Source: Candidatus Cloacimonadota bacterium (GTDB taxonomy: Bacteria > Cloacimonadota > Cloacimonadia > Cloacimonadales > TCS61). From it: 64,000 bases of DNA. Made by a program: the position numbers and the translations under genes. Each line of letters begins with the position of its first letter. Position 1 is the first letter of the stretch. The stretch is from contig JABGOP010000001.1 of assembly GCA_018645365.1 (NCBI GenBank), positions 80,118 to 144,117 on the forward strand, written 5' to 3'. Below, piece by piece: positions 4,503-40,081 of the stretch. The notes beneath the pieces were generated by a model that saw nothing but the letters and a program-made list of their open reading frames with translations, did not search any database and was not told the origin of the DNA.

Positions 4503-4503
4503 A

Positions 4504-6431: not shown

Positions 6432-7211
6432 ATGAAAAGAGGTATTTTTTTACAGATATTCATAATTTTAATCATTTTGATTATTTGGAATCTTGCACAT
6501 CTTGGCTACGATTGGCAACGAGAACATTGTCAAACCGAATTATCCAAAATTCCAATGATTTTAATCTCAAGCGACGACAATGCTTTTAGCTCTCTAAAAA
6601 CCAAAATTGACACCTTGAACTTTATCAAAAGCGCTGTTATTCAAGCAGATTCAACCATTTCACAAAACTTATTACACACTTATGGGTTGGTCGGGATTGA
6701 AGAAATTTTATCAAATTTAACTTTGCCAAACATCATGAAAATCAAGTTTAATATCACTCATTTTGGAATATTACAAAAAGCAAAATTAGAAAAAATCATC
6801 TCCAAAAACCAAGAAGACATTATCCTGATTTACGATCATGATTTTTGGAAGGCTACACAAGTAAGACTAACTCTTCTCACTAAAGCTTATTATCTTCTAA
6901 ATGTATTTATCATCGCAGTTTTACTCTTTTTGACTATTTTTATAAGATTTCATTTTGCCATTATTTCCCAGGAAAAATGGAAAATAAAGCGCGCCCTTGG
7001 TGGCTCGCGAAAAAGCCGCGAAAAAAGTTTTTGGTTAACTTCGTTGTGGCTACTTTTAATCCCGTTCACCTTAATTTTCGGGGGTTATTTTGCAGTAAAC
7101 CATTTCGGGCTTTTAAAATTTGAAATTGCCACCTACAAATTTGGCATTGAGTTTGGCACACTTTTATTGATTATTTTAATTTCACGCATCACTTTACGGA
7201 AAACATTATGA
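6432..7211 (+). CDS. FtsX-like topology membrane protein (putative)
   Basis: One N-terminal TM, a roughly 130-aa extracytoplasmic domain, then three C-terminal TMs. No adjacent ftsE, so the family call is weak. Confidence 0.35.
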   Translation: MKRGIFLQIFIILIILIIWNLAHLGYDWQREHCQTELSKIPMILISSDDNAFSSLKTKIDTLNFIKSAVIQADSTISQNLLHTYGLVGIEEILSNLTLPNIMKIKFNITHFGILQKAKLEKIISKNQEDIILIYDHDFWKATQVRLTLLTKAYYLLNVFIIAVLLFLTIFIRFHFAIISQEKWKIKRALGGSRKSREKSFWLTSLWLLLIPFTLIFGGYFAVNHFGLLKFEIATYKFGIEFGTLLLIILISRITLRKTL

Positions 7212-7762
7212 AAAAACACGCACCTAATATTTTAACTATTTTTCGAGTTCTACTCGTACCCGTTTTTATTTGGTTAACCATTACAAATCACCCATTTTAT
7301 TGGGCTACAGCTGTTTTCATTGTCGCTAGCATTACCGATTATTTTGATGGGCTGCTCGCCCGAAAATTTAAAGTAATTTCAAATTTTGGAAAAATAATGG
7401 ACCCACTTGCCGACAAATTTTTGATAATTTCAGCCCTATTTGTCCTTTCACTAAAGTTGGATTATATTCATCTCAGTATCGTCATTATTATCATTTTTCG
7501 TGAAATTATCATCACAATTTTGCGAGGTTATTACGCAAGAAAAAATATCTTTATCGCAGCAAACATCTGGGGTAAATTGAAAACAATTTTTCAGCTTACT
7601 GGTATTATTTTTTGTCTCTTATTTACAACAGCAAAAAACTATATCTCATTCCCAAGAAATATTGAAAATTCAATCAATTTTAGCATTCAAGCATTTTTCT
7701 GGATTGTTGCAATTATCACTATTTTATCTGGTTTGAATTATTTTATCACCAAACAAAAGTGA
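7208..7762 (+). CDS. pgsA: CDP-diacylglycerol--glycerol-3-phosphate 3-phosphatidyltransferase
   Basis: CDP-alcohol phosphatidyltransferase signature DYFDGLLARKF....GKIMDPLADK. N-terminal NILTIFRVLLVP. Confidence 0.85.
   Translation: MKKHAPNILTIFRVLLVPVFIWLTITNHPFYWATAVFIVASITDYFDGLLARKFKVISNFGKIMDPLADKFLIISALFVLSLKLDYIHLSIVIIIIFREIIITILRGYYARKNIFIAANIWGKLKTIFQLTGIIFCLLFTTAKNYISFPRNIENSINFSIQAFFWIVAIITILSGLNYFITKQK

Positions 7763-21175: not shown

Positions 21176-21176
<1 letters not shown>
20028..21176 (-). CDS. putative glycoside-hydrolase-like TIM-barrel lipoprotein (DUF4015-like)
   Basis: Lipobox LLIGCD. GINTVVFDVKNMDG and VDEIQLDYIRFP blocks resemble the DUF4015 family. The start shares nt 21176 with the atpC stop. 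Confidence 0.55.
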
Positions 21177-23836
<2,660 letters not shown>

Positions 23837-23844
23837 AAATTATC

Positions 23845-25344
23845 CTAAAATTTCTGCAAAACCTCTTCGCAAATTTTACGCATCTCTTCTTTTCGCTCAT
23901 CAGTTAATTTACCTTTCACCATTTCGACCATAAAATCTTGATATTTCAAATCGAGAGTTGAGAAAAGTTCTTCTTCCACTTTCTTCACATCGTTAATTTC
24001 CACTTTATCCAAAAATCCTTCATTTGCCATAAAAATAATGAATATTTGCTTTGCAACTGGAAGTGGTGAATATTGATTTTGTTTCAAAATCTCTACCAAT
24101 CGTTCACCACGACGCAACTGATTTTGTGTGATTTGATCAAGATCAGAACCAAATTTAGCAAATGCCTTCAACTCATCATATTGAGCTAAATTCAATCGAA
24201 GCTGACCAACTACATTTTTCATCGCTTTAATTTGAGCAGAACCACCCACACGAGATACCGAAAGTCCAGCATTAATCGCAGGTTTCACGCCTGAATGAAA
24301 AAGACGGCTTCCTAAATAAATTTGCCCATCTGTAATGGAAATCACATTCGTAGGAATATAAGCTGTAATATCATCAGCTTGAGTTTCAATAATCGGAAGT
24401 GCTGTTAACGAACCGCCACCCAATTTGTCATTTAACTTAGAAGCGCGCTCCAAAAGGCGTGAATGAAGGTAAAATACATCACCTGGATATGCCTCGCGTC
24501 CCGGCGGTCTTCGTAGTAAAAGCGAAAGTTCACGATACGCCACCGCATGCTTAGAAAGATCATCATAAACAATGAGGGCGTGTTGACCTTTATCGCGGAA
24601 ATATTCCCCCATCGAAGCACCTGAATATGGCGATAAATACTGCAATGATGATGAATCTGATGCTGATGCTGAAACAATTACAGTATATTCCATTGCACCG
24701 TGTGATTCCAATATTTTTACTAATTTTGCAATCGATGATTTTTTCTGTCCAATTGCAACATAAATGCACACTACATCTGTATTTTTTTGATTTATTATCG
24801 TGTCAATAGCGATGGCTGTTTTACCTGTTTGACGGTCACCAATAATTAGTTCGCGTTGACCTCTACCAATTGGGATCATCGCATCAACCGATTTTAAACC
24901 TGTTTGTAACGGTTCTTTTACCGGCTGTCTTTGAATAATCCCCAAAGCTTTTCGTTCAACCTTAAAATGATCATCTGGCACAATTTCACCTTTACCATCA
25001 ATTGGTTGCCCAAGAGCATTTACCACGCGCCCTAAAACATTTTTCCCGACTGGAACCTCTAAAATTCGTTTCGTTCTTTTGGCAATGTCGCCCTCTTTAA
25101 CTTTGTGTGTTTCACCAAAAAGGATACATCCCACATTATCTTCTTCCAAGTTCAAAGCCATTCCCACAACGCCATTTGGGAATTCAATCATCTCACCCGC
25201 CATCACATTTTCCATGCCATAAACGCGCGCGATACCATCACCAACCTGAACCACTTTTCCTGTTTCGGCGATATCTATTTCAAATTTGAAATTTTTGATT
25301 TTTTCTTTCAAAATTGCACTTATTTCGTCTGGTTGTATTTTCAT
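23845..25344 (-). CDS. atpA: F-type ATP synthase alpha subunit
   Basis: GDRQTGKTA Walker A and full-length similarity. Confidence 0.97.
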
Positions 25345-25352
25345 ACTGACCT

Positions 25353-25880
25353 CTATCTTTTTATTAATTTTATCAAGTTATTTTTGATTGAACCGTCGAT
25401 TGATATAGATTCTGTCTCAGCTACAAAACCACCAATTATCTCGGGCTGAATTTGAACTGTCAAAACAATTTTTTTTTGTAAAATATCGCTAATTTTTACA
25501 GAAATTTTTGCCATCATTTCGTCAGATTGTTGACGAGCTATTTTCAGCAAGACCTTTATTTTTCCGTTCTCATTCAAAATTTTAACTTCCAAATCATCTA
25601 AAATTTTTGAAATAATTCTAAAACGATTTTTCTTCACCAGAATTTCAAATAAATTCGACCAAATATCTTGAAATAGTAAATTTGGGGGAATTTGCTTAAC
25701 CAATTCAATGCGATTTTTTCGCGAAAACAAAAGGGAATCTGCCGATTTTGCCAAATTACTGCTTTGATTAAAGAGCTGTTGTAATACATTAATGTCACAC
25801 AAAATACCATTATAATCTTTCGGCTCGACACAACCAATTATCGCTTTTGAGTAACGCTCTGCAACTAATTTATTCTTCAT
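25353..25880 (-). CDS. atpH: F-type ATP synthase delta (OSCP) subunit
   Basis: 175 aa, located between atpF and atpA. ERYSKAI start and a C-terminal IGGFV....SIDGSIKN block. Confidence 0.8.
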
Positions 25881-26355
25881 TTTTATCGTCAGAAATTATT
25901 TTACTAATCATCTTTTTATCGTTTTCTACATCGATTTTTTCAGAAAGAAACTTTGCGGATAACTCAGTCACTAATTCACTCAAATCACCCTCAATTTCCT
26001 TCATTACCTTATCGCGCTCGTGAGCTAATTGGTCTTCCGTATCTTTGAGGATTTTCTTCTCTTGTGTGTGAGCATTATCCACAATTTCGGAAGCCTGCTT
26101 ATCTGCATCTCGTTTCGCCAATTGCTTCATTTTTCGAATATCTTCGGCAGACTGCTTTAGCTCTTCATGCTTTTGCTCGACTAATTTTTCCGATTTCACT
26201 TTATTTCCAGAAGCATCATCAATATCGGAAGCAATTTTTTGCTCACGCTCGGCGAGAAACTTCTTAATCGGTTTGTAAAGCATCTTATTCAAAACAATTA
26301 GCAATAAAATAAAATTCAAAATAACGATGATAAAAGCATAATTTATACTTATCAT
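25870..26355 (-). CDS. atpF: F-type ATP synthase b subunit
   Basis: Single N-terminal TM followed by a long charged helix. The ATG at 26355 lies behind GGGAGAGGG; the ORF-track TTG at 26367 is an alternative. Confidence 0.85.
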   Translation of the reverse strand: MISINYAFIIVILNFILLLIVLNKMLYKPIKKFLAEREQKIASDIDDASGNKVKSEKLVEQKHEELKQSAEDIRKMKQLAKRDADKQASEIVDNAHTQEKKILKDTEDQLAHERDKVMKEIEGDLSELVTELSAKFLSEKIDVENDKKMISKIISDDKNEE

Positions 26356-26378
26356 ACCCTCTCCCAATAATTAAAATT

Positions 26379-26633: not shown

Positions 26634-26661
26634 GTTTCCTCCGTTTATCTTTTTATATTTT

Positions 26662-27408
26662 TTATACTGCGAATATCAATAAAAATGCCACAACTAATGA
26701 ATAAATCGCCGTTGATTCCGATACGGCTGCACCTACAAACATTGTTCTCATGATGGAAGCTTTTTCATCTGGAAAACGCCCAATCATATTATTTGCCCTA
26801 CCGGCCACATAGCCAATTCCAGCACCCGGTCCAATCGTGCCAAAACCAATAGACAAGCCCGCTCCCAAGAACGCGACCGATTTGAATATAAGGCGTCCAA
26901 TTGAAATACCTTCTTCCGGATTAGGAACTGAATAAAGTAAGAGCAGTGAAACAACTAACGCAAAAATTGCCGAAGTTTGCGAAAGTGCCTGACCAATCAA
27001 CATATTCCCCATTATCGCATTACTGTGTTTAGGCATTCTTGCGATAGATTTACACGCCTCGCCGCCAGAATAACCCGCCCCAATTGATGGGCCGATCGAG
27101 CCAATTCCAATCGCTACACCAGCAGATAAAAGAGCTGCTACTTTAAACCAACCGCCCTCCGCAACATCGAAACCACCGTAAATAAGTAGCATCGAGACAA
27201 CTAACGCAAAAATTCCAGCCGTTTGGGCTGCTGCTTGACCAATCAGCATTGTGCGAAAAATTGATTCGTTTGCTTTCGGCTGAGTCACGATTGCTTTTGC
27301 ACCTTCACCAGCAATAATCCCTGAACCAATCCCAGTAGTAACAGCACCGATTCCAACGCTAATTCCTGCTCCCAAATACGCCGCAATTCTAATATATTCA
27401 ACCATCAT
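26662..27408 (-). CDS. triplicated c-subunit: three fused c hairpins (six predicted TM helices) in one polypeptide
   Basis: 248 aa. Three consecutive units of about 80 aa, each alignable to the neighbouring atpE. The ion-binding position is Q62, Q144 and E231. Confidence 0.85.
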   Translation of the reverse strand: MMVEYIRIAAYLGAGISVGIGAVTTGIGSGIIAGEGAKAIVTQPKANESIFRTMLIGQAAAQTAGIFALVVSMLLIYGGFDVAEGGWFKVAALLSAGVAIGIGSIGPSIGAGYSGGEACKSIARMPKHSNAIMGNMLIGQALSQTSAIFALVVSLLLLYSVPNPEEGISIGRLIFKSVAFLGAGLSIGFGTIGPGAGIGYVAGRANNMIGRFPDEKASIMRTMFVGAAVSESTAIYSLVVAFLLIFAV

Positions 27409-27411
27409 TTT

Positions 27412-28326
27412 CTACTCCGAAATTTCCACACCGATGTAGGTGAGAGCTAACATTGTGAACACAAACGCTTGGATTGTTCCTACAAAAATTCCAAAAAATA
27501 AGTTTAATCCAACCGGGAAAACTATAAACTTTACCAACGATGAAACAACCAAAATGATGATTGCACCGCCCAATACATTTCCAAAAAGTCGGAATGATAT
27601 CGAAACAACCTTAGAGATTTCACCAACCAAATCCAAAATAAAAAGTGGGTTCTTGATTGGATTAAAATAATTTTGTAAATGATGCCATAATCCCTTTACT
27701 TTTATGGCGGTTGCGTGAACTACAACTACCGCTATAAAACCTAATCCAAGCGGAACATTCAAGTTTCTCGTTGGCTCCATAAACCCTGGAATTGGCACTA
27801 ATCCAATCATATTACACACCCAAATAAAAATGAATAGCGTAACGATGTAAGGCGTAAAGTGACGCTTCTCTTTCCCGAGAGTTTCCACCACAAATTCTTC
27901 CAGTAACACATAAATCATTTCGAACATAATTTGCGGTTTAGATGGCCTTGTGAAAAGTTTTTTACGAATTAAATAAGCCATCAAAAGCAACACCATATCT
28001 ACAATTAATAACATTCGTAAAAGATTAAAGGTGCCAACTGCTGTTGCCTCTCCAAATATTGTTTTGAAAAAATTATAAATTTTTTCGGAGTTATAAATTT
28101 TGGGTATTTCACCGATTTGACGGTAATGTTCATCAATTTGAAATTCTTCTGTAATTTTTTCTTGAAGATCGAAGTGAGTTGCTTCATTTTTGACGATAAA
28201 CTTACCGTCATCAAAGCCTATTTTCAGCTCTTTACTGAAATTACCAGAAAATGCCACAATCGCAATTTCAATTGCGATAAAAATCAAAAAAATCTTCAAT
28301 GTCGGACTTAACTTCTTTTTTGCCAT
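27412..28326 (-). CDS. atpB: F-type ATP synthase a subunit
   Basis: Polytopic. Conserved SFRLFGNVLGG (essential Arg) and the C-terminal helices. Has a long N-terminal extension. Confidence 0.9.
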   Translation of the reverse strand: MAKKKLSPTLKIFLIFIAIEIAIVAFSGNFSKELKIGFDDGKFIVKNEATHFDLQEKITEEFQIDEHYRQIGEIPKIYNSEKIYNFFKTIFGEATAVGTFNLLRMLLIVDMVLLLMAYLIRKKLFTRPSKPQIMFEMIYVLLEEFVVETLGKEKRHFTPYIVTLFIFIWVCNMIGLVPIPGFMEPTRNLNVPLGLGFIAVVVVHATAIKVKGLWHHLQNYFNPIKNPLFILDLVGEISKVVSISFRLFGNVLGGAIIILVVSSLVKFIVFPVGLNLFFGIFVGTIQAFVFTMLALTYIGVEISE

Positions 28327-28336
28327 CTTATCCCTT

Positions 28337-28696
28337 TTATTTTTTCATTTTCAAATAAATTTCATATAGATAAATCGCCATTTGGGAAGACATTAACCCT
28401 AATCCAAAAGTGATTATATTCGGTTTCACAACCCCCATAATAATCAGCGTATAGACCATCAAAAACATATAACGCAAAAGCGAATTTTTCACTGTCTTAA
28501 TTTTTGTTTTTGAAGGAAATAAGTCTAAATTTTTTGCCAAATTCATTGCCAACCACCAAAAGCTAATTGCACTCGCAACTGAACCCAAAATCCAACCTAA
28601 CGCATCCTTAAAAAACAAAGGCAAAATCGAAATAGCAATCACATCTGTCAAGAAAATTATAAATATTACACACTGAACATATTTGATAGTGTTCAT
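28337..28696 (-). CDS. atpI: ATP synthase subunit I-like membrane protein
   Basis: 119 aa and polytopic, positioned immediately upstream of atpB. Confidence 0.5.
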   Translation of the reverse strand: MNTIKYVQCVIFIIFLTDVIAISILPLFFKDALGWILGSVASAISFWWLAMNLAKNLDLFPSKTKIKTVKNSLLRYMFLMVYTLIIMGVVKPNIITFGLGLMSSQMAIYLYEIYLKMKK

Positions 28697-28926
28697 GTTT
28701 TTTTTTTCAAAATCCTATAAGCCATAAAAATTCCTAAAAATACACCCAAAATAACACCGAAAGGAATCAGTTTACCACCAAAAGCAAATTTTCTGTCCAA
28801 AAATAAAAAGATTAAAAACATAAATAACATTGAACCGATAACCGTCAAACCCAATTGTGAAACCATCTCAAAATAGACAATAATCTCTTTATTTTGAAGT
28901 TTATTTAGATTCAATTTTTTCTTCAT
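28693..28926 (-). CDS. AtpZ/AtpI-family small membrane protein
   Basis: 77 aa with two TMs, at the head of the atp operon. Overlaps atpI by 4 nt. Confidence 0.5.
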   Translation of the reverse strand: MKKKLNLNKLQNKEIIVYFEMVSQLGLTVIGSMLFMFLIFLFLDRKFAFGGKLIPFGVILGVFLGIFMAYRILKKKT

Positions 28927-29257
28927 TTTTCATCTTACTAGCACCATTAAAAATAGCACCGGAATGGATTTTTACAATTTTAGCCACCACATCGCCCTGT
29001 AAATTAGCGGAACTATTCAATTCTAAACCACTCTCTACCGTTACATTGCCAGATACATTCCCAGCAATAAGACATTCAGACGCAACAATGCTACCTTTTA
29101 CACTGCCAAATTCACTTACTGTTATGAATCCATCTGACTCTACATTTCCCTCTATTTTTCCATCAATACGAAGACCGCCAATGGCTTTCAAATCACCTAT
29201 AAATTCACTATCTTCCCCTATAATCGTAGAAAGTTCTATTCTTCTATTTCGTGCCAA
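28901..29257 (-). CDS. bactofilin (polymer-forming cytoskeletal protein)
   Basis: Repetitive beta-helix pattern: IGEDSEFIGDLKAIGGLRIDGKIEGNVESDGFITVSEFGSVKGSIVASECLIAGNVSGNV. TTG start follows AGGAGG. The 3' end overlaps the AtpZ-like gene by 26 nt. Confidence 0.85.
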   Translation of the reverse strand: MARNRRIELSTIIGEDSEFIGDLKAIGGLRIDGKIEGNVESDGFITVSEFGSVKGSIVASECLIAGNVSGNVTVESGLELNSSANLQGDVVAKIVKIHSGAIFNGASKMKNEEKIESK

Positions 29258-29310: not shown

Positions 29311-29943
29311 TTAATATTCTAATATTTCTAATTTATCATCCGTAATTAGCTCAATACTTTTCCCGTCTTTGATAATTTCAAAATGCAAATGTGGGGCAGA
29401 GCTAAAACCAGTATTGCCAATTTTAGCTATCTGTTGTCCTTTTTTTACAAACTCGTTTTTTGTCGCAAAAATTTCGGATAGATGTGCATAAAATGTGATG
29501 TAGTCAAAATGATTGACCAGTATAGATTTGCCGAAATATTCATCTTCGTAAATTGAAATTATAACACCAGATGCTGCGGCAATTACGGGCGTTCCAGTTG
29601 GTGCAGCATAATCGACCGCCGGATGCTTTTTACTGTATTTTTGACTAATCGCATAATCACCTTCAATTGGACATAAATTTGGCATAAAATCATTCTTTAT
29701 TAGCTTCTTTTTTTTTATGCTCTCAACGGTAATTAATGATATTTCTGATTTTTCGGAAGTGATGTATCTTTTTAAAAGTTGACGGATTTGCTGGTCATTT
29801 TTTTTGTCATTTTTTTCTATTGATAGCAATTCTGACAGTTTCCAAAACTCACTTTTACATTCTTGAATTTGCTGTTTCATTTTATCATTTTGAATTAATA
29901 AACCAACCAAAAAAATACTTAAAATTACGATGATTATTTTCAT
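29311..29943 (-). CDS. M23 peptidase, membrane anchored
   Basis: N-terminal TM. HPAVDYAAPTGTPVIAAASGVI and GNTGFSSAPHLHFEI motifs. Confidence 0.85.
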   Translation of the reverse strand: MKIIIVILSIFLVGLLIQNDKMKQQIQECKSEFWKLSELLSIEKNDKKNDQQIRQLLKRYITSEKSEISLITVESIKKKKLIKNDFMPNLCPIEGDYAISQKYSKKHPAVDYAAPTGTPVIAAASGVIISIYEDEYFGKSILVNHFDYITFYAHLSEIFATKNEFVKKGQQIAKIGNTGFSSAPHLHFEIIKDGKSIELITDDKLEILEY

Positions 29944-30785
29944 TTTTTAAGTTTTTCGATTATTTGTTGTAATTTCTCGAAAGATTTGTAATGAATTGTA
30001 ATTTTACCAAAATTTTCTTTGCCAATAATCTTGATTTTTGTTTGAAAAATATCTGCTAATTCAGTTTCGAATTTGTTAAATTGTTGTGATTGTGGAGCGG
30101 TTGCTTTTTTAGAAAAATCTCTATTTTTCATCTTTTTTGCGGTCTCTTCTGCTTTTCGAACCGACATTTTATGTTTCAAAATCGTATCCGCAAAATCTTG
30201 TCGCAAATGTTCTTCTACCTGCAAAATAGTGCGGGCGTGCCCTGTCGATAATTTCTTTTTTAAAATTAATTTCTGAATATTACCATTTAGCTTCAATAAT
30301 CGAATTAAATTGGTAACGGTGGCACGATCTTTTGCTACCATTTTGGCAATTTGACCATGCGTTAAGCCAAAATCTTCACTCAGTTTTTGATATGCTTTTG
30401 CTTCCTCTATCGCACTTAAATTCTCACGTTGCACGTTTTCGATGATAGCAAATTGCAGTTGTTCTTTCGGTGAAACAGAGCGAATTATTACTGGAATTTC
30501 GGTAAATCCAGCAATTTTGGAAGCTTCCAAGCGCCTTTCACCCGCAATTAACTCATACTTTGAATTGTCTTTTTTGGTAACAATTATCGGTTGAATAATA
30601 CCACTTTCTCGTAAAGAATTTGCCAATTCTTCCAATTTTTCTTGATCAAATTCGATGCGTGGCTGAAACTTATTCGGCGAAATATCTGCAACTTTTACGG
30701 TTGTAATTCCGGTTGTTTTATCCACCGATTCCGAGCTTGAACCGATGAGTGCATCTAAACCTTTTCCCAGTCTTGAGTTTTTCAT
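29940..30785 (-). CDS. parB: chromosome partitioning protein ParB
   Basis: ParB box LIAGERRLEAS and HTH region LTHGQIAKMVAKDRATVTN. Located downstream of parA. Confidence 0.93.
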   Translation of the reverse strand: MKNSRLGKGLDALIGSSSESVDKTTGITTVKVADISPNKFQPRIEFDQEKLEELANSLRESGIIQPIIVTKKDNSKYELIAGERRLEASKIAGFTEIPVIIRSVSPKEQLQFAIIENVQRENLSAIEEAKAYQKLSEDFGLTHGQIAKMVAKDRATVTNLIRLLKLNGNIQKLILKKKLSTGHARTILQVEEHLRQDFADTILKHKMSVRKAEETAKKMKNRDFSKKATAPQSQQFNKFETELADIFQTKIKIIGKENFGKITIHYKSFEKLQQIIEKLKK

Positions 30786-31537
30786 CTTAGAATTACCTCC
30801 TTTGCCAAAGCCAGGTAATTTACCGCACCACGTGACTTTATGTCATAATGGAAAATAGATTTTCCAAAACTAGGCGCTTCACTTAATTTCACACTACGGT
30901 GAACAACTGTATCAAAAACTTGTTCGCGAAAATACCTTCTCACCTCTTTCGCAACCTGCTGAGACAAATTTAATCTTTTATCGTAAAGAGTCAAAACCAC
31001 TCCCAAAATATTTAAATTTGTGTTCAAATTTCGCTTTATCAAACGCACCGTGTTGATGAGTTGACTAACACCCTCAAGGGCGTAATATTCACACTGAATC
31101 GGGATAATCACATCGCTACAAGCAGAAAGTGCATTGACGGTAAGAAGCCCCAAAGATGGTGGACAGTCGAGCAAAATATAGTCGTAATTTGCTTCAATTT
31201 TCTGGAGAATTTTCTTCAGTTTATACTCGCGTGAAAATTCTTTTACAAGTTCAATTTCGGCACCCGTTAAGTCCATATTTGAAGATATAACATCTAAGTG
31301 TTTCAAGATTGGAGACGGCTTTATCACCTCCGCTATCTCAGTTTTACCAATTAGTGCCTCATAAATATTGGGGCTTTTTTTTTCGACACCGACTCCACTT
31401 GAAGCATTCCCTTGTGGGTCAAAATCTACTAAAAGTGTCTTTTTCTCAAAAATCGCCAAGGCTGATGCTAAATTTATGGCAGTTGTGGTCTTGCCTACAC
31501 CGCCCTTTTGGTTTACAATCGCAATTATTTTTGCCAT
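30782..31537 (-). CDS. parA: chromosome partitioning ATPase ParA/Soj
   Basis: Deviant Walker A NQKGGVGKTTTAINLA and DCPPSLG. Confidence 0.95.
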   Translation of the reverse strand: MAKIIAIVNQKGGVGKTTTAINLASALAIFEKKTLLVDFDPQGNASSGVGVEKKSPNIYEALIGKTEIAEVIKPSPILKHLDVISSNMDLTGAEIELVKEFSREYKLKKILQKIEANYDYILLDCPPSLGLLTVNALSACSDVIIPIQCEYYALEGVSQLINTVRLIKRNLNTNLNILGVVLTLYDKRLNLSQQVAKEVRRYFREQVFDTVVHRSVKLSEAPSFGKSIFHYDIKSRGAVNYLALAKEVILR

Positions 31538-31547
31538 AATTTTTCAA

Positions 31548-32153
31548 TTATTTCCTTATTCGAACTATTTTTCTCTCGCCGATTTCAGGGTGGCTTACAT
31601 TAAATATTTCCACTTTTGTGAATTGTTCCACATCATCCATTTTTTTGCTTTTATACAAAATTATTTCACCATCATCTTTCAATAACTTCAACATCCATTT
31701 TTTGAATTTTGGCAAAATTTTCACCGAACGACAGACAATTACATCAAACGATTTAAGCCACTCTTCATCCATATCTTCGAGCCGTGAAACAATCGTGAAA
31801 CATCTTTTTAAGTCAAGTTTTTTAATTATTTTTTCTACCGACTGCATCTTTTTTTGTCTCGAATCCAACAAATAAACTTCTGCATTTGGGTATAATATCT
31901 TGAGTGGAATTCCAGGTAAACCTCCACCTGTTCCAAAATCGAGAATTTTTTTATTCGAAAAATCGAAATGCTCAGTTAACAAAATAGAGTCTAAAAAGTG
32001 AATTGTCCAAAAATCTTCAGGGTTTGTTTTGCGAGAAACAAGGTTAATCATGGCGTTTTCTTCTAACAAAAATTGATGATATTTTTGGAAAAGTTCCATC
32101 TTCTTTTCTTTTGATATTTTCTTTAAATAATTTCTAAAAATTTCTTTTTTCAT
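31548..32153 (-). CDS. rsmG: 16S rRNA (guanine527-N7)-methyltransferase RsmG
   Basis: DFGTGGGLPGIPL SAM motif and rsmG-parA-parB synteny. I prefer the ATG at 32153, because the TTG at 32180 abuts a TTGACA box. Confidence 0.85.
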   Translation of the reverse strand: MKKEIFRNYLKKISKEKKMELFQKYHQFLLEENAMINLVSRKTNPEDFWTIHFLDSILLTEHFDFSNKKILDFGTGGGLPGIPLKILYPNAEVYLLDSRQKKMQSVEKIIKKLDLKRCFTIVSRLEDMDEEWLKSFDVIVCRSVKILPKFKKWMLKLLKDDGEIILYKSKKMDDVEQFTKVEIFNVSHPEIGERKIVRIRK

Positions 32154-32206
32154 AACTTGCACACTGCTATTTTTAGACAATTGATGTCAAGTGGAAAATG
32201 TGGAAT

Positions 32207-34513
32207 TTATTTCTTCAAACGCACCTTAAACTTTCGGATACACCGATTACCATTTTTATCGATAACTTCCAAAATGTGATTGCCTTCTGAAAAAGTAATT
32301 GCCTTGCTATGCTTGGTGGTAGATGTACCCAGATAAATATCATCTAAATACCAAAAAACTGTACTTTTTTTCTTTTGATGAACAAGTTTTACCGTTATTT
32401 TTTGTAATTTTCCGCCGATATCTCGTGGAATCCACAAGCAACTATTTTCGATTGGATAAGTGATTTCAATAAAATTATGATGTGGATGGGTTGTACATTT
32501 TTCGTTATGGGGTGGCAACTTGGAAATATTGTGACCACACTCATGCAAATATTGCGTAATGTGAGGCGGATAAATCGACACATTTTTACTTTTATAACTG
32601 TCCGCATCCCAACACATCGAACAAACCTCGTTTTCGTCAGTTTCTGAAACAAATATCTTTTGATGATACGGACACTTTTTTACAGTTTTGTTAATGTTGG
32701 GTGATAAAACCCACAGCGTATCAGAACAATTTACACCCGCCAGAAATCCTGTTTCTTTGCAAATCCCAATATAATTCATCTCTTCGGAAGGTATTTCGAA
32801 CCACTTTGCTGTTTTTGGAAGCGAGTTATAAATATCAAACAAAATTGGCCCCGCAGACCGTGCACCGCCAATAGCCGGATTTCCTTCGCCGGTAAAGTTT
32901 CCCACCCAAACCGCAATTGTCCAGTCGGGACTAACGCCAACTGCCCACGCATCGCGATTGCCAAAGCTTGTACCAGTTTTCCACGAAAGAGGGTATTGAT
33001 TTTCGTATTGATGCCAATAAAATTCATCACCTGGACGCTTTAACTTTTTTAAAATATCCAAAGTAAGATAACACGCCCCCGGACTTAAAATTGGTTGTTT
33101 AAATTGTTTCTCAATGTCAGATTCAATGATTTTCAAAGCCGAGAACTTACCATAATTTGCCAGTCCACGATACAACATTGCCAAATCATATAAATTTGTT
33201 TCTGCACCACCAATAATTAATGAAAGACCGTAATCACCTGCATTTCGAAAGAGAGTGCTCACGCCAGCAGATTGCAAAAAATTATAAAAATCTGCAATTC
33301 CATAGGTATTCAAAAGTCGAACTGCTGGTATATTTTTAGAATAAATCAACGCATTTTCCGCTGTTATCAACCCTTCAAATTTATGGTCGGCATTTTCTGG
33401 TGAAAAAGAACCAAAATAAGTGGGCACATCTTTAATTAATGTTTGTGGAAGAATAATGCCATCCTCAATGCAAAGTGCATATAAAAATGGTTTTAGGATC
33501 GAGCCAGATGACCGCGATGCTTTCACGCCATCTACCTGACCACCAAATTCATTATCCCAAAAATTTTGTGAACCAATGTAGCCTCGAATTTTTCCAGTTT
33601 TTGTTTCGACGATAATCGCGGCAGCATTATTTACACCCTGCATTTTTTGCAATACATTATATTGCTTAATTATCTTTTCTGTCTTTTTTTGAATTTCGTT
33701 ATTAATCGTGCTTTTAACTGATTTTCCGCGATATTTATTATGTAAACTTCTCGCAATATGATTAGCTTTTTGTTCAATTATATAGATTTTTTTCGGAGTT
33801 GGTTCACGCACGCTGAGTGTAAAAGTTTCTGCATCTATCACATTTTTTTCAAAAAGCATTTTCAATAATTTATTGCGTTTTGCGATTAATTTTTCCTGGT
33901 TTTTCCCGGGTGAAATAATGGCAGGAGAATTGGGCAAAATTGCCAAAGTTGCGGCTTCTCCCCAACTGAGTTGCTCTGGTTTTTTGCGAAAATATTTGAA
34001 TGATGCCGCCTGAAATCCGATAATATTTCCACCGTACGGAGCGTTATCGAGATACATTTGCAAAATTTCATCTTTTGAAAAACGGGTTTCAATTTTTATT
34101 GCTAGCAAAATTTCCCTAAATTTATACCAATATGTGCGTGCTTTGGGATTGGAAATTCTCGCCAATTGCATCGTGATGGTACTACCACCACTCATAATTT
34201 TTCGATAACGAATATTCAAGTAAAGACCACGAAAAAGTGCCAACGGATTTACGCCAAAATGAGAATAAAAATGTTTATCTTCGAAGGTAAGAACTGCTAG
34301 TTTTAACTTTCGTGGAATAACAATAGTTGTATCGGGTGGAAAGCACCATTGCTCATTTTTATTCAAAAAAGAGTGTAGAATTTCGCCATTTTCTGCAAAA
34401 ATAACGGTACCATATTTTTCTGGTGAAAAAAGAGGCTTCAGCGGAAAAAGTAAATAAATTCCCAAAAACAAAATCGGCATAATCAACATAAAAAGAATAA
34501 TTATTTTTTTCAT
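32207..34513 (-). CDS. pbpC: penicillin-binding protein 1C
   Basis: GT51 motifs FEDKHFYSHFGVNP and GGSTITMQLAR. Transpeptidase motifs SILKP (SxxK) and KTGTS. Has the C-terminal PBP1C-type domain. The ATG at 34513 follows AGGAG. Confidence 0.9.
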   Translation of the reverse strand: MKKIIILFMLIMPILFLGIYLLFPLKPLFSPEKYGTVIFAENGEILHSFLNKNEQWCFPPDTTIVIPRKLKLAVLTFEDKHFYSHFGVNPLALFRGLYLNIRYRKIMSGGSTITMQLARISNPKARTYWYKFREILLAIKIETRFSKDEILQMYLDNAPYGGNIIGFQAASFKYFRKKPEQLSWGEAATLAILPNSPAIISPGKNQEKLIAKRNKLLKMLFEKNVIDAETFTLSVREPTPKKIYIIEQKANHIARSLHNKYRGKSVKSTINNEIQKKTEKIIKQYNVLQKMQGVNNAAAIIVETKTGKIRGYIGSQNFWDNEFGGQVDGVKASRSSGSILKPFLYALCIEDGIILPQTLIKDVPTYFGSFSPENADHKFEGLITAENALIYSKNIPAVRLLNTYGIADFYNFLQSAGVSTLFRNAGDYGLSLIIGGAETNLYDLAMLYRGLANYGKFSALKIIESDIEKQFKQPILSPGACYLTLDILKKLKRPGDEFYWHQYENQYPLSWKTGTSFGNRDAWAVGVSPDWTIAVWVGNFTGEGNPAIGGARSAGPILFDIYNSLPKTAKWFEIPSEEMNYIGICKETGFLAGVNCSDTLWVLSPNINKTVKKCPYHQKIFVSETDENEVCSMCWDADSYKSKNVSIYPPHITQYLHECGHNISKLPPHNEKCTTHPHHNFIEITYPIENSCLWIPRDIGGKLQKITVKLVHQKKKSTVFWYLDDIYLGTSTTKHSKAITFSEGNHILEVIDKNGNRCIRKFKVRLKK

Positions 34514-34609
34514 TCTGACTCCTTTTGATTGAATTAACAAAAAGAAAAAACGCCAAAGCCACAAACGGGAGAATTTTCAAATAACTTCGACGTTTTTCCG
34601 AGTTGCATT

Positions 34610-37600
34610 TTACTTCACAACTCTAATTTTTAGAGAAGGTAAATTGGCACTAACTTCGCTGTTATACATTGCTTCACAAAGAGTTGACGGAAGTGTAAAC
34701 TCACCGATTGTTACCGCATTCAATTTCACGAGAAAATATTTAGCAGAGTTGCCACGCATATCAAAAAACCACATAATTCGATCATCGCGAATATCCACAA
34801 AATCTTCTTGTCTGAGTATTTTATCTTTGAATTTCGTCTGTTCTTCATCAAGTAAACGCATGTTTTCAATTTCCCAACCAGACGGCAAAATTTGGTTTAA
34901 AGCTATTTCATCGATAGCATGCCTATCTTTATTTTCCACTTTGAAAAATCCGTAAAAAATTGTATTTTGCTTCAATTCAGTTGGATTAATCACTTTTTTA
35001 TCTTCCGAATACCATGCCACATCTACAAAAATGCCATTTTGCTTTTTCTTATTTTTGGGATTCAGAGGAACACCGCTCCAATTCATTGTCGCAAAAATTT
35101 TTTCCAGTTTTGAATTACTATCAAGTCGAATTTTTACCGTTTTCCCGAAAGAATTAGGGATGTTTTTGGAAACTAAAAACTCATCTGAATCGAAAGTAAT
35201 TTTTTCGCCATTTGGCAAATACATTTTACCTTTTAATTTTGCATCTTCATTAAATTGAGCAAAATTGCGATTAATATATTTTCCCAAAGCAAGCAACACA
35301 TAACCAGTTGTGTGAGTAGAATACCAATCTTTGGTTGAAATTTTGCGCACAATTTCTCGATACATTTCTTCAGATTTCTTTTGTTCGTCCATTATAATTA
35401 GAGCATCTAAAATCATTGCTTTATCACGCAATGTGCTGCCGTAAGTGCCGCCAAATTCCGAAAAATTCAGTACTTTCAAACCTGTTGTTTGGGCAATTTT
35501 TTCGGCAGTTCGTGAAATACCCGCCAATTTGTAAGATGCAGCCAACAACCAACGCTCCACATCACTCATTTGACCAAGCTCATTTTCTTTCAGCAAATTC
35601 ATCGCACCAATTTCCGCATTATCGGAAAGCGCCAAAACATACAAACGGTAAACGCGAGTTTTCAAATTTTCCACTTGTGAGTTTGTAATTGCCATCGACT
35701 GTTGAAATTTGACCCAATTTGCCAGAAGTTCAGAAGGCACAAAATAACCAAGCCTTTGTGCTTCCACGAGAAAATGTCCCGCATAATTTGTATTCCATTT
35801 TGAAACCCCCAAACCACCAGGCCAATATGAAAATCCTCCGTTCGGCTGTTGAAATTTACGCAATCGCTGAATTCCCATGTTGATATTTTTGTCAATCTCC
35901 TCATTCGTGGTTTGTGCATTTTTCAAAAAAGATTTTAAGTATAATTGTGGAAAAACAGCTGATGTCGTCTGTTCAAGACAACCATACGGGTATTGCATCA
36001 ACCAATTTAAGCGATGAGAAAGATTTACTTTTGGCATTCTTGCAATCGTGATTGTCGCTTCATTTGTCCCTTTTATACCATCATTGGGGATTTTAAAGAT
36101 AATTTCTTCGCCTCTTTTACACTCTTTTTCGGTGAAATTGGAAAGACGTGGAGAATTTGGTCGAGAAGCAATTTCTATTTTGTAAAAAGCTTCAAAATTT
36201 TCGGAAATTGCCCTTACTGTAATATTTCCAATGCCAATTTCGTTTTTTACGCGTAAATTAAAAGCAACATCTTGTTCACCAATTTTTGGAAAAAATGCTG
36301 CTTTATCGTGTTCGCCAACTATTTGAAGCGGACCATCAACTTCAATACTTACGCTCACATTTTTGATTTTCTCATTTGTGGCAAAAACTGTAACCGGGAG
36401 TTGAAACTCATCTTGTGGCGCAACTACTCGCGGTACAGTTGGCAAAACCATCAATTCACTTTTTACGGGCACTGTTTTTTCTGCCATTCCGTATTTTTCT
36501 TTTTTAGCTGAAAGAACCATCACCCGCACTGCTCCAACATATTCAGGTAACTCAAAATCGATTTTCGCATAACCACCTTCATCTGTTTGAAGTGGACCTT
36601 TGAACATTGAAATTGACTTAAATCGCTTTGCTTTAATCGGTGATAATTGATTATCGTCACAAATCCCATAATCACCTCCAACCGAAAATGTTTTGAAAAT
36701 ATCACCCTTATTGGCTCCAATTATTTGCCCATAATTATCAAAGGTATCTACTCCCAAACGCAATTTTTTGTAAAATTCCAGCCATGCGCTTGGTGTCTTA
36801 AAATTAGTTAAACCAAGTAAACCTTCATCAACTACCGCAATCGTAAATTGTGTTTGCTCCCGATTTTCAGTTTGAATTTCACACGAAAATTTTTGATTTG
36901 GTTTCAATTCATTTGGCATTTTAATGTTTAATTTTTGATGAGTAGAGCTATCTTCCACCATAATTGGAACCACACCGAACATTCGAATTGGGCAATCATT
37001 TTCTGTTTGTTTGTGCGGTTGAATTACCGAAACGGAACAGTAAATATTTGGTACCATTTCTTTGGTTATCGGTATCTTTATCGTGGTTTGCTCACCATTT
37101 GGCTCACTCCAATAATTTTTCAAAATTTTATCAGCTTTTTCGAGCATTACAAGAACTTCACTCTCTTTTGAAGCAGAAAAAGTAATGGTTGCGATTTCAC
37201 CAACTGTATATTTTGGTTTATCCGCTTTAATTGTAAGAATTCCAGCATTTTGCATCCCACCTTCATTTCCGCCCCAATATGAAACATAGCTAAAAACAGC
37301 AGCAGAATGACCTTTTTTGGTGGATTTATGAGTAATTTCAATAAGGTATTCTCCTCTTGTTTCTGGAGTAAATTCAAAATAGTGTGGCGCTAACGCGGAA
37401 GAAATTTTTTCCTCAAAAATAAGCTCTGTTTCAGAATCAGTTTTGAAATGCAACCGTGCATAATCACGCGAATCATATTCCCACCACCAATATCTATTAT
37501 TCTTGTAAATGCAAACTTGAAGCTCTTCTCCCACTTTCGGTTGACCATCTTTATCAACTAATATAACATTTGCAGAAAATGGTATTCCAATTTTGCTCCA

Positions 37601-40081
37601 TTTGTCCGACAATGACTCGATGCCAACATAATATTCATAAGGATCAATGTGAAGAAGCTGATTTTTTTTGCTTGAACGACCGCCTTTTTCGAAAACTTCC
37701 GCTTTAATTTTTGCAGTAATAGCAGACGGCACATTTGTTAAATATGGCATTTTCCAGCCAACCTGAAGCATTCCATCATCATTCAAAAAACCATCAAAGA
37801 TTTTTTGATTAAGTGTTTTAAAAATAACCGTTTCGTTACCAAAAAAATAAGTTTTATACTTTGAAAATCTCTTGTTTTGGTGAATAATTTTTGTTTTAAG
37901 AATCGCCTTCAAACCAGCTGCTGGATTGCCAAATAAATAAGCAGATGATAGTGCGATATCGACCACCTTATCCTTCGCTGAAAAGTTCTCTTTTTCCATT
38001 TTAAAATTTATTTTAAGGCGTTCTGGCACAACAGTTTCGATTTTTAATTTATGATAAAAAGTGCTGTTGCCTACCCTTATTTGAACATTCCACCTACCCG
38101 TTAAATCTTCTGAATCGGTTTGATATTTCAAATTGTAAAAACCGTCTTCCGCAGTTTTCAATATTTGTTCAAAAACCAGTTGATTTTTGGGATTGAATAT
38201 TTTTATTTCAACGGGATGATTATCGGGAAATGTATCATTTGCATTTCTCGCTATTATCGAAATATTGACAGCATCACCAGGTCGATAAACCCCACGTTCT
38301 GTGTAGATGAAAACTCGTGTTCCGCCACTTTCAGATTGCACTCCGCCCACATCAAAAGTAGAAAGATTCCAACCCATTTCATCAAGCGTCAAAATACTTT
38401 TGTGCTCATTAAATTCCGCTTCTACAAAAAACACATTAGCGCCATTTTTGGCAAAACTCACTCGTCCAGCTTTGTTTGTAATCAATTCCTCAATAACCTG
38501 ATTTTGGTAACTCTTCAATCTAACTTTTACATTTTGCATTGGTTGAGCAGTCAAAATATTGTTCACAAAAACAATATACTCATCACTTGTTTTTTTGTAA
38601 GTTATTCCCATATCGGTAATTATGAGTGGTTTTACAATTTTCCCATGCTTATGATAATAACCATTTTTCATTGGATTTGTATAGTAGTCAGAACTGTAAT
38701 AATTTTCATCAACTTCTTGCAAACCACTATATAGAATATCATCTTTCGTAAATGATATCTCAATGACAAACAGCCCTTTTTTTGTCGGTGCAATCAAGTC
38801 ACTCAAATCAAGTTCGTGTTGCAACCACTTATTTTTGGTTTTATCACCAATAATGAGTTTTTTTTCAATAATATCCACCCCAACTCGCTTAAAATGCCAA
38901 GAGCCATAGCCATTATGTCTATTTTTATTGCTGTTTAGCTTTTCATTTTGTATGAAAAAGCCGATATTAGATTCGTAAACTTCCTTAATTTTGAGGGTTA
39001 CGGCTTTCACATTTAATGTGCGAAAACAAATTTTATTTTCGTTTGAGGACGGCAATAACATTCCATCATTCGAAAAAATTATTTGTGGTTTTTGGTCACT
39101 AAAATGGAATTTTTTCTTAAATTCAGATACTGTCTTGATGCCAAATTTATTGGAAATACCTGCATTTACGATTACTGAATAACTTTCGCCAAGCTTGAAA
39201 TCTCCGGTTACAATGATTTTTTTACCGATTTTTTTTGTCTCGATTTTCAAATAAGGTTGTACCGAAATTAAACCAGTAATGTCTTGTTGAGAATTTAATT
39301 CATCAGAAAAATCTAGTACAATCGTTGGAAATTGATTATCAAATTTACGGTAAACATTAATCAACTTCATCTCGTGCAATGAGCTTAAACTGAATTTTCT
39401 TTCAAAATTTTCTAATAATTTGAGATTTTTTTTCTCAATTTTTAATGTAAATTCTTTTTCCACATCGGCTCTCTCAACAATCTGCGATTTAAATAAAAAT
39501 TGCTTTGAAGCACCTTCAATTTCCAACTGAATAACCTTATTTCCAATTTTGCATGAAAGTGCTTTTTTGACAGTCGCTAAGTCTGTGGGAATATTGAATT
39601 TAATTTCACCTTCATATCGTAAATTTTTATTCCCGGCATCTGTGTAGATAAAATCGGCATCAAAAAAAATCAATTCACGACCAATAATTTCAAAATCAAA
39701 ATGGAATGATTTTTTCATCAATATCCTACGAAAGATTACATCAAGAACAAGCTCACATTGATATTTTTTTCGCATTTTGAGAGGCTCTTGAGGAATAAAT
39801 TTCAAAGTCTGGCGATCACTCCAAATAGTTTTTCCTTCAATTTTCGGTGAAAATTTAAAAACTTCCTCTTTGGGGGCAGTTCCAATCTGTTCAGATGTTA
39901 TCATCTCGTTCACAAAACGAACCTGAATGGGAGTATTTGGCATAATTTTTCCACTTGTAATTTGATTTATGTAGTGAGCAGCTTCTTGAATATTTCGCAT
40001 TTCGTTTGGTTTTTTATCGCAACCAAAAAATAAAAATACACTCAAAAAAACTATAATTACCGTTTTCCATTGCTGTTTCAT
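34610..40081 (-). CDS. bacterial alpha-2-macroglobulin family lipoprotein (thioester-containing)
   Basis: 1823 aa. Lipobox LFFGCD, thioester motif YPYGCLEQTTS, and the classic adjacency to pbpC. Confidence 0.9.
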   Translation of the reverse strand: MKQQWKTVIIVFLSVFLFFGCDKKPNEMRNIQEAAHYINQITSGKIMPNTPIQVRFVNEMITSEQIGTAPKEEVFKFSPKIEGKTIWSDRQTLKFIPQEPLKMRKKYQCELVLDVIFRRILMKKSFHFDFEIIGRELIFFDADFIYTDAGNKNLRYEGEIKFNIPTDLATVKKALSCKIGNKVIQLEIEGASKQFLFKSQIVERADVEKEFTLKIEKKNLKLLENFERKFSLSSLHEMKLINVYRKFDNQFPTIVLDFSDELNSQQDITGLISVQPYLKIETKKIGKKIIVTGDFKLGESYSVIVNAGISNKFGIKTVSEFKKKFHFSDQKPQIIFSNDGMLLPSSNENKICFRTLNVKAVTLKIKEVYESNIGFFIQNEKLNSNKNRHNGYGSWHFKRVGVDIIEKKLIIGDKTKNKWLQHELDLSDLIAPTKKGLFVIEISFTKDDILYSGLQEVDENYYSSDYYTNPMKNGYYHKHGKIVKPLIITDMGITYKKTSDEYIVFVNNILTAQPMQNVKVRLKSYQNQVIEELITNKAGRVSFAKNGANVFFVEAEFNEHKSILTLDEMGWNLSTFDVGGVQSESGGTRVFIYTERGVYRPGDAVNISIIARNANDTFPDNHPVEIKIFNPKNQLVFEQILKTAEDGFYNLKYQTDSEDLTGRWNVQIRVGNSTFYHKLKIETVVPERLKINFKMEKENFSAKDKVVDIALSSAYLFGNPAAGLKAILKTKIIHQNKRFSKYKTYFFGNETVIFKTLNQKIFDGFLNDDGMLQVGWKMPYLTNVPSAITAKIKAEVFEKGGRSSKKNQLLHIDPYEYYVGIESLSDKWSKIGIPFSANVILVDKDGQPKVGEELQVCIYKNNRYWWWEYDSRDYARLHFKTDSETELIFEEKISSALAPHYFEFTPETRGEYLIEITHKSTKKGHSAAVFSYVSYWGGNEGGMQNAGILTIKADKPKYTVGEIATITFSASKESEVLVMLEKADKILKNYWSEPNGEQTTIKIPITKEMVPNIYCSVSVIQPHKQTENDCPIRMFGVVPIMVEDSSTHQKLNIKMPNELKPNQKFSCEIQTENREQTQFTIAVVDEGLLGLTNFKTPSAWLEFYKKLRLGVDTFDNYGQIIGANKGDIFKTFSVGGDYGICDDNQLSPIKAKRFKSISMFKGPLQTDEGGYAKIDFELPEYVGAVRVMVLSAKKEKYGMAEKTVPVKSELMVLPTVPRVVAPQDEFQLPVTVFATNEKIKNVSVSIEVDGPLQIVGEHDKAAFFPKIGEQDVAFNLRVKNEIGIGNITVRAISENFEAFYKIEIASRPNSPRLSNFTEKECKRGEEIIFKIPNDGIKGTNEATITIARMPKVNLSHRLNWLMQYPYGCLEQTTSAVFPQLYLKSFLKNAQTTNEEIDKNINMGIQRLRKFQQPNGGFSYWPGGLGVSKWNTNYAGHFLVEAQRLGYFVPSELLANWVKFQQSMAITNSQVENLKTRVYRLYVLALSDNAEIGAMNLLKENELGQMSDVERWLLAASYKLAGISRTAEKIAQTTGLKVLNFSEFGGTYGSTLRDKAMILDALIIMDEQKKSEEMYREIVRKISTKDWYSTHTTGYVLLALGKYINRNFAQFNEDAKLKGKMYLPNGEKITFDSDEFLVSKNIPNSFGKTVKIRLDSNSKLEKIFATMNWSGVPLNPKNKKKQNGIFVDVAWYSEDKKVINPTELKQNTIFYGFFKVENKDRHAIDEIALNQILPSGWEIENMRLLDEEQTKFKDKILRQEDFVDIRDDRIMWFFDMRGNSAKYFLVKLNAVTIGEFTLPSTLCEAMYNSEVSANLPSLKIRVVK

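Follow-up and report, generated by a model that had tools for sequence, protein, structure and literature searches.

The number of ion sites carried through one turn of the c-ring sets the ion/ATP ratio of an ATP synthase, and this ratio decides whether ATP can be made near the thermodynamic limit or how steep a gradient can be pumped. What kind of rotor, then, is encoded by an operon in which a multi-hairpin subunit c with few carboxylates stands next to an ordinary one? The question is raised by a 64,000-nucleotide stretch of a Candidatus Cloacimonadota genome (contig JABGOP010000001.1 of assembly GCA_018645365.1; hereafter the window), whose F-type ATP synthase operon contains c3, a subunit c of 248 amino acids (aa) made of three fused hairpins, next to atpE, which encodes an 84-aa one-hairpin c (monomer c). 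We think it fairly probable that c3 is a rotor subunit of a Na+-coupled F1Fo enzyme and, by analogy with Acetobacterium woodii, that it joins monomer c in a heteromeric ring as an ion-poor spacer, lowering the Na+/ATP ratio. The three-hairpin protein would assemble beside monomer c, as A. woodii c1 does with c2/3, and would be the minority component of a mixed Na+ ring. At the two interfaces within c3, where Gln stands for Glu, no ion would be bound, and the Val/Ser/Thr/Tyr face of hairpin 3 would complete the Na+ site of the next monomer. For each copy of c3 at least two, perhaps three, ion-coupled steps per turn would thus be lost, and the Na+/ATP ratio would be lower. Ring assembly, neighbour relations and the effect on stoichiometry are what we infer from sequence; a heteromeric ring with a lowered ion/ATP ratio is suggested by the conserved pair of c3 and c, by c3 variants free of carboxylates and by the monomer-like face of hairpin 3.

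A first-pass annotation, made from the nucleotide sequence without database searches, had read the ORF (open reading frame) between atpB and atpE as three consecutive c hairpins in one polypeptide, and this reading was borne out. The ORF starts with ATG, contains no internal stop codon and lies on the minus strand within a complete F-type operon. The Pfam model PF00137 (ATP-synt_C) matches it in three separate stretches, as had been expected (142 bits, E 6e-42, cutoff 24), and three stretches each are likewise matched by several NCBIfam models of F0F1 subunit C, which pass their cutoffs with scores summed over the three hairpins. The six transmembrane (TM) helices that had likewise been anticipated appear both as six hydrophobic segments in a hydropathy scan, with E231 as the sole charged residue inside any of them, and as six long helices in an AlphaFold2 model based on 16 homologues (mean predicted local distance difference test score 93.8). 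Because the raw sequence of the window is unverified and its nearest relatives are known from metagenome-assembled genomes, one might suspect that three tandem atpE genes are read through here or that the ORF is a decaying pseudogene; no positive evidence for either was found. Pairwise identity among the hairpins is just 37-45% (56% between hairpin 3 and the local monomer c), which indicates that c3 does not consist of recent tandem copies fused by a sequencing error. An ORF of the same length is moreover found in 80 species genomes and more than 100 protein clusters, with a ratio of nonsynonymous to synonymous substitution rates (dN/dS) of about 0.06. Phylum-wide conservation and purifying selection effectively refute an artefact, the chance of which we regard as close to nil.

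For this comparison one genome per species was scanned; 167 genomes encode a relative of c3, and all locus counts given here refer to the best 80 of these 167. All 80 belong to Cloacimonadota except one bin labelled Armatimonadota, and the closest relative, L001, is 96% identical. Protein searches returned more than 100 clusters of homologues of 246-255 aa (57-100% identity), of which the named ones are Cloacimonadota or Cloacimonetes. Linkers and ORF length are conserved in c3 of the 80 independent species genomes, and in 77 of the 80 loci the gene directly after c3, in the same orientation, encodes a one-hairpin c. Of the three other loci, two stop at a contig edge, which makes 77 of 78 informative loci; the third (L069) is considered below. 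Against L001, dN/dS is 0.056 at a dS of 0.36 (0.07, 0.09 and 0.014 for hairpins 1, 2 and 3), a value that is quantitative for this pair alone, synonymous sites being saturated in all other relatives. The dN of more distant pairs remains low, roughly two to three times that of monomer c. The low dN and a dN/dS of about 0.06 indicate that c3 is kept by strong purifying selection; judged by its substitutions, selection is maintaining every hairpin, the two that lack a carboxylate as well. The c3 gene is neither an artefact nor a one-off.

When the three hairpins are aligned with the local atpE product and the c subunits of Ilyobacter tartaricus and Escherichia coli, the carboxylate column is occupied by Q62, Q144 and E231 (E67 in monomer c). 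The first-pass annotation had placed these positions correctly to the residue, and hairpins 1 and 2 have no acidic residue at the site. Of the fusion and the Q/Q/E residues, both of which it had suggested looking for in related genomes, the fusion recurs with a following c at the 77 loci mentioned above, and Q/Q/E in part of the species. Written as the residue in hairpins 1/2/3, the carboxylate pattern is E/Q/E in 34 of the 80 species, Q/Q/E as in the window in 32, G/Q/E in five, E/Q/Q in three, Q/Q/Q in three (L007, L028, L034), and G/Q/Q (L063) and E/E/E in one each; in one species c3 is truncated. The best 120 protein clusters show the same spectrum, with P0017, P0026, P0032, P0036, P0090 and P0096 free of carboxylates. 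At the four carboxylate-free loci an intact Na+-type monomer c still follows. Since a Q/Q/Q or G/Q/Q c3 cannot couple ions alone and its partner c is intact, these variants point to a ring of c3 and monomers. In a midpoint-rooted neighbour-joining tree of c3 (calculated without support values), all deep branches carry E/Q/E, the window falls in a nested Q/Q/E clade, and Glu was replaced by Gln in hairpin 3 in at least three separate events. By this tree E/Q/E looks like the ancestral pattern of the phylum, and the single-carboxylate c3 of the window looks derived from an ancestor with two carboxylates.

Which of the interfaces could bind an ion can be considered hairpin by hairpin with the residue numbers of Fusobacterium nucleatum c, in which positions 32 and 65 of one hairpin form the A side of a site and positions 63, 66, 67 and 70 of its neighbour the B side. 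Na+ in the F. nucleatum ring is bound by Glu32 and Glu65 of a given subunit and by Ser66 and the Val63 oxygen of its neighbour, with Tyr70 and Ser66 forming hydrogen bonds to Glu65 and a water molecule held by Thr67 (PMC3692424). The pocket of Enterococcus hirae NtpK, which lies within a single subunit, is formed by L61, T64, Q65, Y68, Q110 and E139 (PMC10382590). In our alignment the first four correspond to positions 63, 66, 67 and 70 of hairpin 1, and Q110 and E139 to positions 32 and 65 of hairpin 2, which by homology suggests that the B side of each site is supplied by the N-terminal neighbour hairpin. The same rule applies to A. woodii c1 (E65 and F70 in hairpin 1; Q65 with T66, T67 and Y70 in hairpin 2). 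Monomer c of the window contains the Na+ motif E34 ... V-S-E67-S-T-G-I-Y, whose residues are those of the F. nucleatum two-carboxylate site. V63, E65, S66, T67 and Y70 are found in the monomers of all 77 species, and position 32 is Glu in 73 and Gln in four of them.

The interface between the preceding subunit and hairpin 1 is dead in the window (S29, Q62) and complete in the E/Q/E relatives. Positions 32 and 65 of hairpin 1 were lost jointly, with Glu at both in 33 species and Ser plus Gln in 36. Between hairpins 1 and 2 the interface is dead everywhere: the carboxylate position of hairpin 2 is Gln in 79 of 80 species and position 70 of hairpin 1 is Phe in all 80; the face that hairpin 1 turns toward hairpin 2 reads A/T/A/F in the window. 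Toward hairpin 3, hairpin 2 presents L142/T145/S146/F149 in place of V/S/T/Y, again with Phe at position 70 in 80 of 80 species. At this last internal interface E231 is kept, with Ile as its helix-1 partner in 79 of 80 species (I198 in the window, equivalent to Q32 of I. tartaricus). Because the helix-1 ligand is Ile and hairpin 2 gives Phe for Tyr, E231 would not form a canonical Na+ site, at best a non-canonical one. The earlier count of one ion site per six helices is thus correct as regards the carboxylate, whereas the canonical Na+ shell around it is lost. The outward face of hairpin 3, in contrast to that of hairpin 2, is monomer-like (V229/S232/T233/Y236 in the window); across the 80 species Ser66 is present in 79, Thr67 in 77 and Tyr70 in 78, regardless of whether position 65 is Glu (72) or Gln (7).

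In the Q/Q/E clade hairpin 1 of a following c3 is dead, so that only monomer c could make use of the hairpin 3 face. We regard this conserved face as the strongest argument that the sequences offer for a heteromeric ring. The two proteins might instead be used separately, c3 forming rings of its own (for example four copies with 12 hairpins and 4 carboxylates) and the operon yielding two alternative rotors whose ion/ATP ratios would differ greatly. Fused c dimers and trimers obtained by engineering are reportedly tolerated in E. coli (Jones and Fillingame 1998), which would speak for rings made of c3 alone, and in the E/Q/E forms hairpin 1 of a following c3 could make use of the hairpin 3 face. 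Besides, only multi-hairpin proteolipids make up the rings of V-type and some archaeal enzymes (PMC9171764). In the clade of the window, however, with S29 and Q62 in hairpin 1, the conserved Ser/Thr/Tyr face of hairpin 3 would serve nothing in such a ring, the Q/Q/Q and G/Q/Q variants would be unable to function, and the monomer gene has been kept beside c3 in 77 of 80 loci. Rings composed solely of c3 are therefore an unlikely outcome in our view.

Among proteins of known structure, the best sequence match to c3 in the PDB is A. woodii c1 (4bem_J, E 2e-25, c3 residues 5-161), followed by A. woodii c2 and the c subunits of F. nucleatum and I. tartaricus. A Foldseek search with the c3 model also placed 4bem_J first (E 7e-8), followed by four-helix V-type proteolipids; no six-helix proteolipid structure was among these fold matches. 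The choice of A. woodii c1 as a precedent in the first-pass annotation thus agrees with both sequence and fold. The many V-type c subunits that Foldseek lists after A. woodii c1, weak matches to NCBIfam V-type subunit K models, and a review that gives Cloacimonetes a V-type ATP synthase (PMC8892533) might be taken to mean that c3 is a V/A-type proteolipid which was gained horizontally and inserted in an F-type operon. Yet the V-type K scores of 66.5, 53.5 and 40.1 bits compare with cutoffs of 211, 188 and 101, the best PDB sequence matches are all F-type c subunits, hairpin 3 resembles the local F-type monomer at the identity given above, and the operon is F-type. Such an origin is very improbable.

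Hybrid rotors of c1 and c2 are described for A. woodii and Clostridium aceticum (PMC7911925; PMC9171764), and the A. woodii ring is reported to be heteromeric, with nine c2/3 and one c1 (PMC9171764). The crystal structure 4BEM places both A. woodii c types in one ring. In both systems a multi-hairpin c directly follows atpB and precedes a single-hairpin Na+-type c (A. woodii operon: PMC7911925), Gln replaces Glu in the dead hairpins (AVAQTTGIY in hairpin 2 of c1; Q62 and Q144 in c3), and the last hairpin offers Thr/Thr/Tyr (in c1) to the next subunit while the first contains a Phe70. They differ in that c1 has two hairpins (four TM helices, V-type like) and c3 three (six helices), and two silent hairpins stand side by side in c3. 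The full Q...ET site of c1 is moreover on its first hairpin, whereas the lone carboxylate of the window's c3 is on its last, within a degraded shell, and the monomer partner in Cloacimonadota uses a two-carboxylate E...ES motif and not Q...ET. With the homomeric F. nucleatum c11 ring, the window shares the monomer residues E32, V63, E65, S66, T67 and Y70; no multi-hairpin partner is described there.

The A-type proteolipid of Methanocaldococcus jannaschii has three hairpins with two carboxylates and belongs to an A1Ao enzyme with a presumably homomeric ring and no monomer partner. Compared by description, it resembles c3 in its three fused hairpins with partly kept carboxylates (two of three also in the E/Q/E forms), and differs from it in that c3 is F-type by profile and operon and is paired with monomer c. 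Archaeal c subunits contain 1, 2, 3 or 13 hairpins, in a list of multi-hairpin forms that is restricted to archaea (PMC9171764). The literature that we searched contained no description of a three- or five-hairpin F-type c; a review on how hybrid rotors are distributed and the paper on the A. woodii structure were outside the scope of this search. We conclude that c3 is a variant of the hybrid F-type rotor which is phylum-wide and is matched in a second phylum by a five-hairpin form.

A role of c3 outside the rotor, and several points that weigh against an ion-poor spacer in a mixed ring, have to be considered. The repeated loss of carboxylates, which in hairpin 3 comprises at least three E-to-Q changes that arose independently, and a dN two to three times that of monomer c would also suit a protein that is not a working part of the rotor, be it a scaffold or template for c-ring assembly, a regulator or brake of Fo, or a passive conserved membrane protein. 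In c3, however, the Gly-rich packing motifs of the inner helices, the cytoplasmic loop Pro, the hairpin lengths and the site face of hairpin 3 are all kept as in a ring subunit, and the nearest characterised analogue, A. woodii c1, is a bona fide ring member. The operon furthermore already encodes AtpI, which is described as an assembly factor and not as a subunit (PMC7911925). A role outside the rotor is accordingly quite improbable. A ring of Bacillus PS3 engineered as c10 with a single E56Q makes no ATP, according to a passage in PMC8809890 that refers to Mitome 2004; given this dead ring, natural rings with silent hairpins must have adapted the a/c interface or neighbouring residues. Two or three adjacent silent hairpins are also mechanically demanding. 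The rule that the N-terminal neighbour supplies the B side leans on homology to NtpK and on one sentence in a later paper. At locus L069 (5989-7903), c3 is followed by an opposite-strand gene of 365 aa and no monomer c, and the contig ends next; this arrangement may represent an insertion, a rearrangement or a misassembly. Finally, the Shine-Dalgarno sequence is stronger for monomer c (GGAGG, mean duplex energy -8.8 kcal/mol) than for c3 (GGAG, -6.3) in 58 of 72 species, which is consistent with c3 as the minor component of the ring, but this argument is weak. In the window, GGAG precedes c3 (27409-27440) and GGAGG precedes monomer c (26634-26661).

To illustrate what the proposed heteromeric ring could mean energetically, a ring of 11 hairpins (the number in the Na+ rings of F. 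nucleatum and A. woodii) with one c3 and eight monomers would have 9 carboxylates per turn and need 3.0 ions/ATP, compared with 3.67 in a homomeric c11. By our own rough estimate, each hairpin step against a phosphorylation potential of about 50 kJ/mol costs about 14 kJ/mol. It might be speculated that consecutive silent hairpins are hard to pass in ATP synthesis under load and harmless in ATP-driven Na+ pumping. The approximately 30 further ORFs of the window that were examined with Pfam are housekeeping genes only, and there is no Rnf, Nqr, decarboxylase pump or second ATPase in the 64 kb.

The same searches also revealed proteins with more hairpins than c3, namely five-hairpin proteins of 400-406 aa and one four-hairpin protein of 324 aa (P0110), some of which are named Deltaproteobacteria or Desulfobacteraceae. 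Their carboxylate patterns are E/Q/Q/Q/Q, E/Q/Q/Q/E and E/Q/Q/E. In two Desulfobacterota metagenome-assembled genomes (L081, L082) the five-hairpin protein, c5, occupies the same slot as c3, after atpB and before a monomer c, in the order atpZ-atpI-atpB-c5-c-atpF-atpF'. As in c3, the inner hairpins carry Gln and the last hairpin keeps S-T-Y with Glu or Gln; the first hairpin has E32 and E65 together with F70. Apart from its five hairpins, c5 differs from c3 in that the genes for Fo stand in an operon of their own, which contains two subunits b. When single hairpins (about 75 aa) are placed in a neighbour-joining tree without bootstrap, both hairpins of A. woodii c1 group with A. woodii c2, the c3 hairpins group together and, through c3 hairpin 1, with hairpin 1 of c5, and the last hairpin of c5 groups with monomers, a tentative hint at separate origins of c1 and c3/c5. 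Among 1.84 billion representatives, searched exhaustively without a profile, 70 proteins matched at E <=1e-30, and the best 150 include metagenomic proteins with 2, 3, 4, 5, 7, 8, 11 and 15 hairpins (P0121-P0269; also P0184 and P0270). That F-type rings with c3-like subunits exist in at least two phyla, as an undescribed family independent of c1 whose polypeptides each add an unbroken sector of three to five hairpins (with two, one or no sites per c3) that lies largely or wholly ion-silent between Na+ monomers, is a generalization that we offer tentatively, as a possibility with somewhat less than even prospects.

Two kinds stand out among the proteins with many hairpins. A large group of metagenomic four-hairpin proteins of about 320 aa shows the pattern E/Q/E/D. 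A 15-hairpin protein of 1139 aa with Glu in all hairpins is named Promethearchaeota/Hodarchaeota (Asgard archaea) and would supply an entire rotor ring as a single chain, an arrangement reported for Methanopyrus.

A. woodii has the only experimentally characterised hybrid F-type ring that we found, with one silent hairpin in eleven. Current models of torque generation are stretched by a natural, phylum-wide subunit in which two to three silent hairpins lie next to one another, and by a five-hairpin relative in which up to four do so; the c3 and c5 variants are ready-made constructs for testing cooperation among c subunits. If the mixed ring proposed here exists, it amounts to a naturally occurring test of how low the ion/ATP ratio can go and how the a/c interface carries the rotor across dead positions. 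Cloacimonadota are abundant in anaerobic digesters and anoxic waters, and their metabolic reconstructions assume the standard stoichiometry of a Na+ F-type enzyme or misstate the type of ATPase. In addition to the V-type assignment in the review cited above (PMC8892533), a 2025 study describes a 'partial V/A-type ATPase' in one Cloacimonadota clade (PMC12590816). An F-type Fo cluster is present at all 80 species loci, and automatic pipelines that label c3 'subunit c / V-type subunit K', as one JGI name does, might feed this confusion.

The atp genes of the window form a complete canonical F-type operon on the minus strand, in the order atpZ-I-B-c3-c-F-H-A-G-D-C (Table 1). The start of c3 sits 3 nt past the stop codon of atpB, and the atpZ-like gene is found in the same slot in L081 and L082 as well. 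A scan of the operon for promoters and terminators yielded no more sites than shuffled sequence. N-ATPase operons have the order atpD-C-Q-R-B-E-F-A-G and lack a delta subunit. The N-ATPase model TIGR03322 passes its cutoff on c3 only by summing the three hairpins, and assignment to this class was rejected in view of the gene order and the presence of delta (atpH).

Table 1. Positions of the atp genes and of the c3 hairpins in the window, and of c5 and its monomer partner in two Desulfobacterota metagenome-assembled genomes
Feature	Position	Strand	Evidence and remarks
c3, 248-aa subunit c of three fused hairpins, six TM helices	26662..27408	-	ORF; PF00137 in three stretches
Hairpin 1 of c3, aa 1-84	27157..27408	-	Q62 (codon 27223-27225); helix-1 ligand position S29
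Hairpin 2 of c3, aa 85-170	26899..27156	-	Q144 (codon 26977-26979); helix-1 position A111
Hairpin 3 of c3, aa 171-248	26665..26898	-	E231 (codon 26716-26718); helix-1 position I198
atpE, ordinary one-hairpin c, 84 aa	26379..26633	-	PF00137, one stretch
atpB, subunit a, 304 aa	27412..28326	-	PF00119 at aa 105-298; conserved Arg in SFRLFGN
atpI	28337..28696	-	PF03899
atpZ-like small membrane protein	28693..28926	-	PF09527, 25.7 bits, just below cutoff 26.6
atpF, subunit b	25870..26367	-	PF00430
atpH	25353-25880	-	Assigned, as are the four genes below, by reading the sequences (Walker motifs, order, sizes)
atpA	23845-25344	-	As for atpH
atpG	22985-23836	-	As for atpH
atpD	21564-22964	-	As for atpH
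atpC	21176-21571	-	As for atpH
c5, 404-405 aa, Desulfobacterota	L081 8001-9218; L082 8001-9215		E/Q/Q/Q/E and E/Q/Q/Q/Q
Monomer c beside c5, 82 aa	L081 9290-9538; L082 9255-9503		

Subunit a of the window has an N-terminal extension of about 100 aa with one hydrophobic segment, its Pfam domain beginning only at residue 105. It recurs in the subunit a of L069 (301 aa) and is absent from the Desulfobacterota subunits a of 223-224 aa. Upstream of the atpZ-like gene, and overlapping it by 26 nt, a 118-aa ORF on the minus strand (28901-29257) appears bactofilin-like by eye, with a G-x-V/I-x-G beta-helix repeat. ORFs resembling ParB, ParA and RsmG/GidB, likewise recognized by eye, lie directly upstream of the atp operon (29940-32180, minus strand), preceded by an M23-like peptidase ORF; from this parAB/gidB arrangement the region may be situated near the chromosomal origin.

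Elsewhere the window encodes a polyprenyl synthetase (4474-5394), a CDP-alcohol phosphatidyltransferase (7208-7762) and a protein of the geranylgeranyl-reductase family (PF22578; 44900-46090). These genes may bear on the proposal, listed among the references of PMC8542988, that bacteria of the FCB (Fibrobacteres-Chlorobi-Bacteroidetes) group are able to make archaeal-type ether lipids. A bacterial alpha-2-macroglobulin (A2M) of 1823 aa is encoded at 34610-40081 on the minus strand (Pfam A2M, bMG3/5/6/10 and TED). Beside it, on the same strand (32207-34564), a 785-aa ORF resembles by eye a PBP1C-type transglycosylase/transpeptidase, and we take the two genes to be an instance of the known A2M-PbpC pairing.

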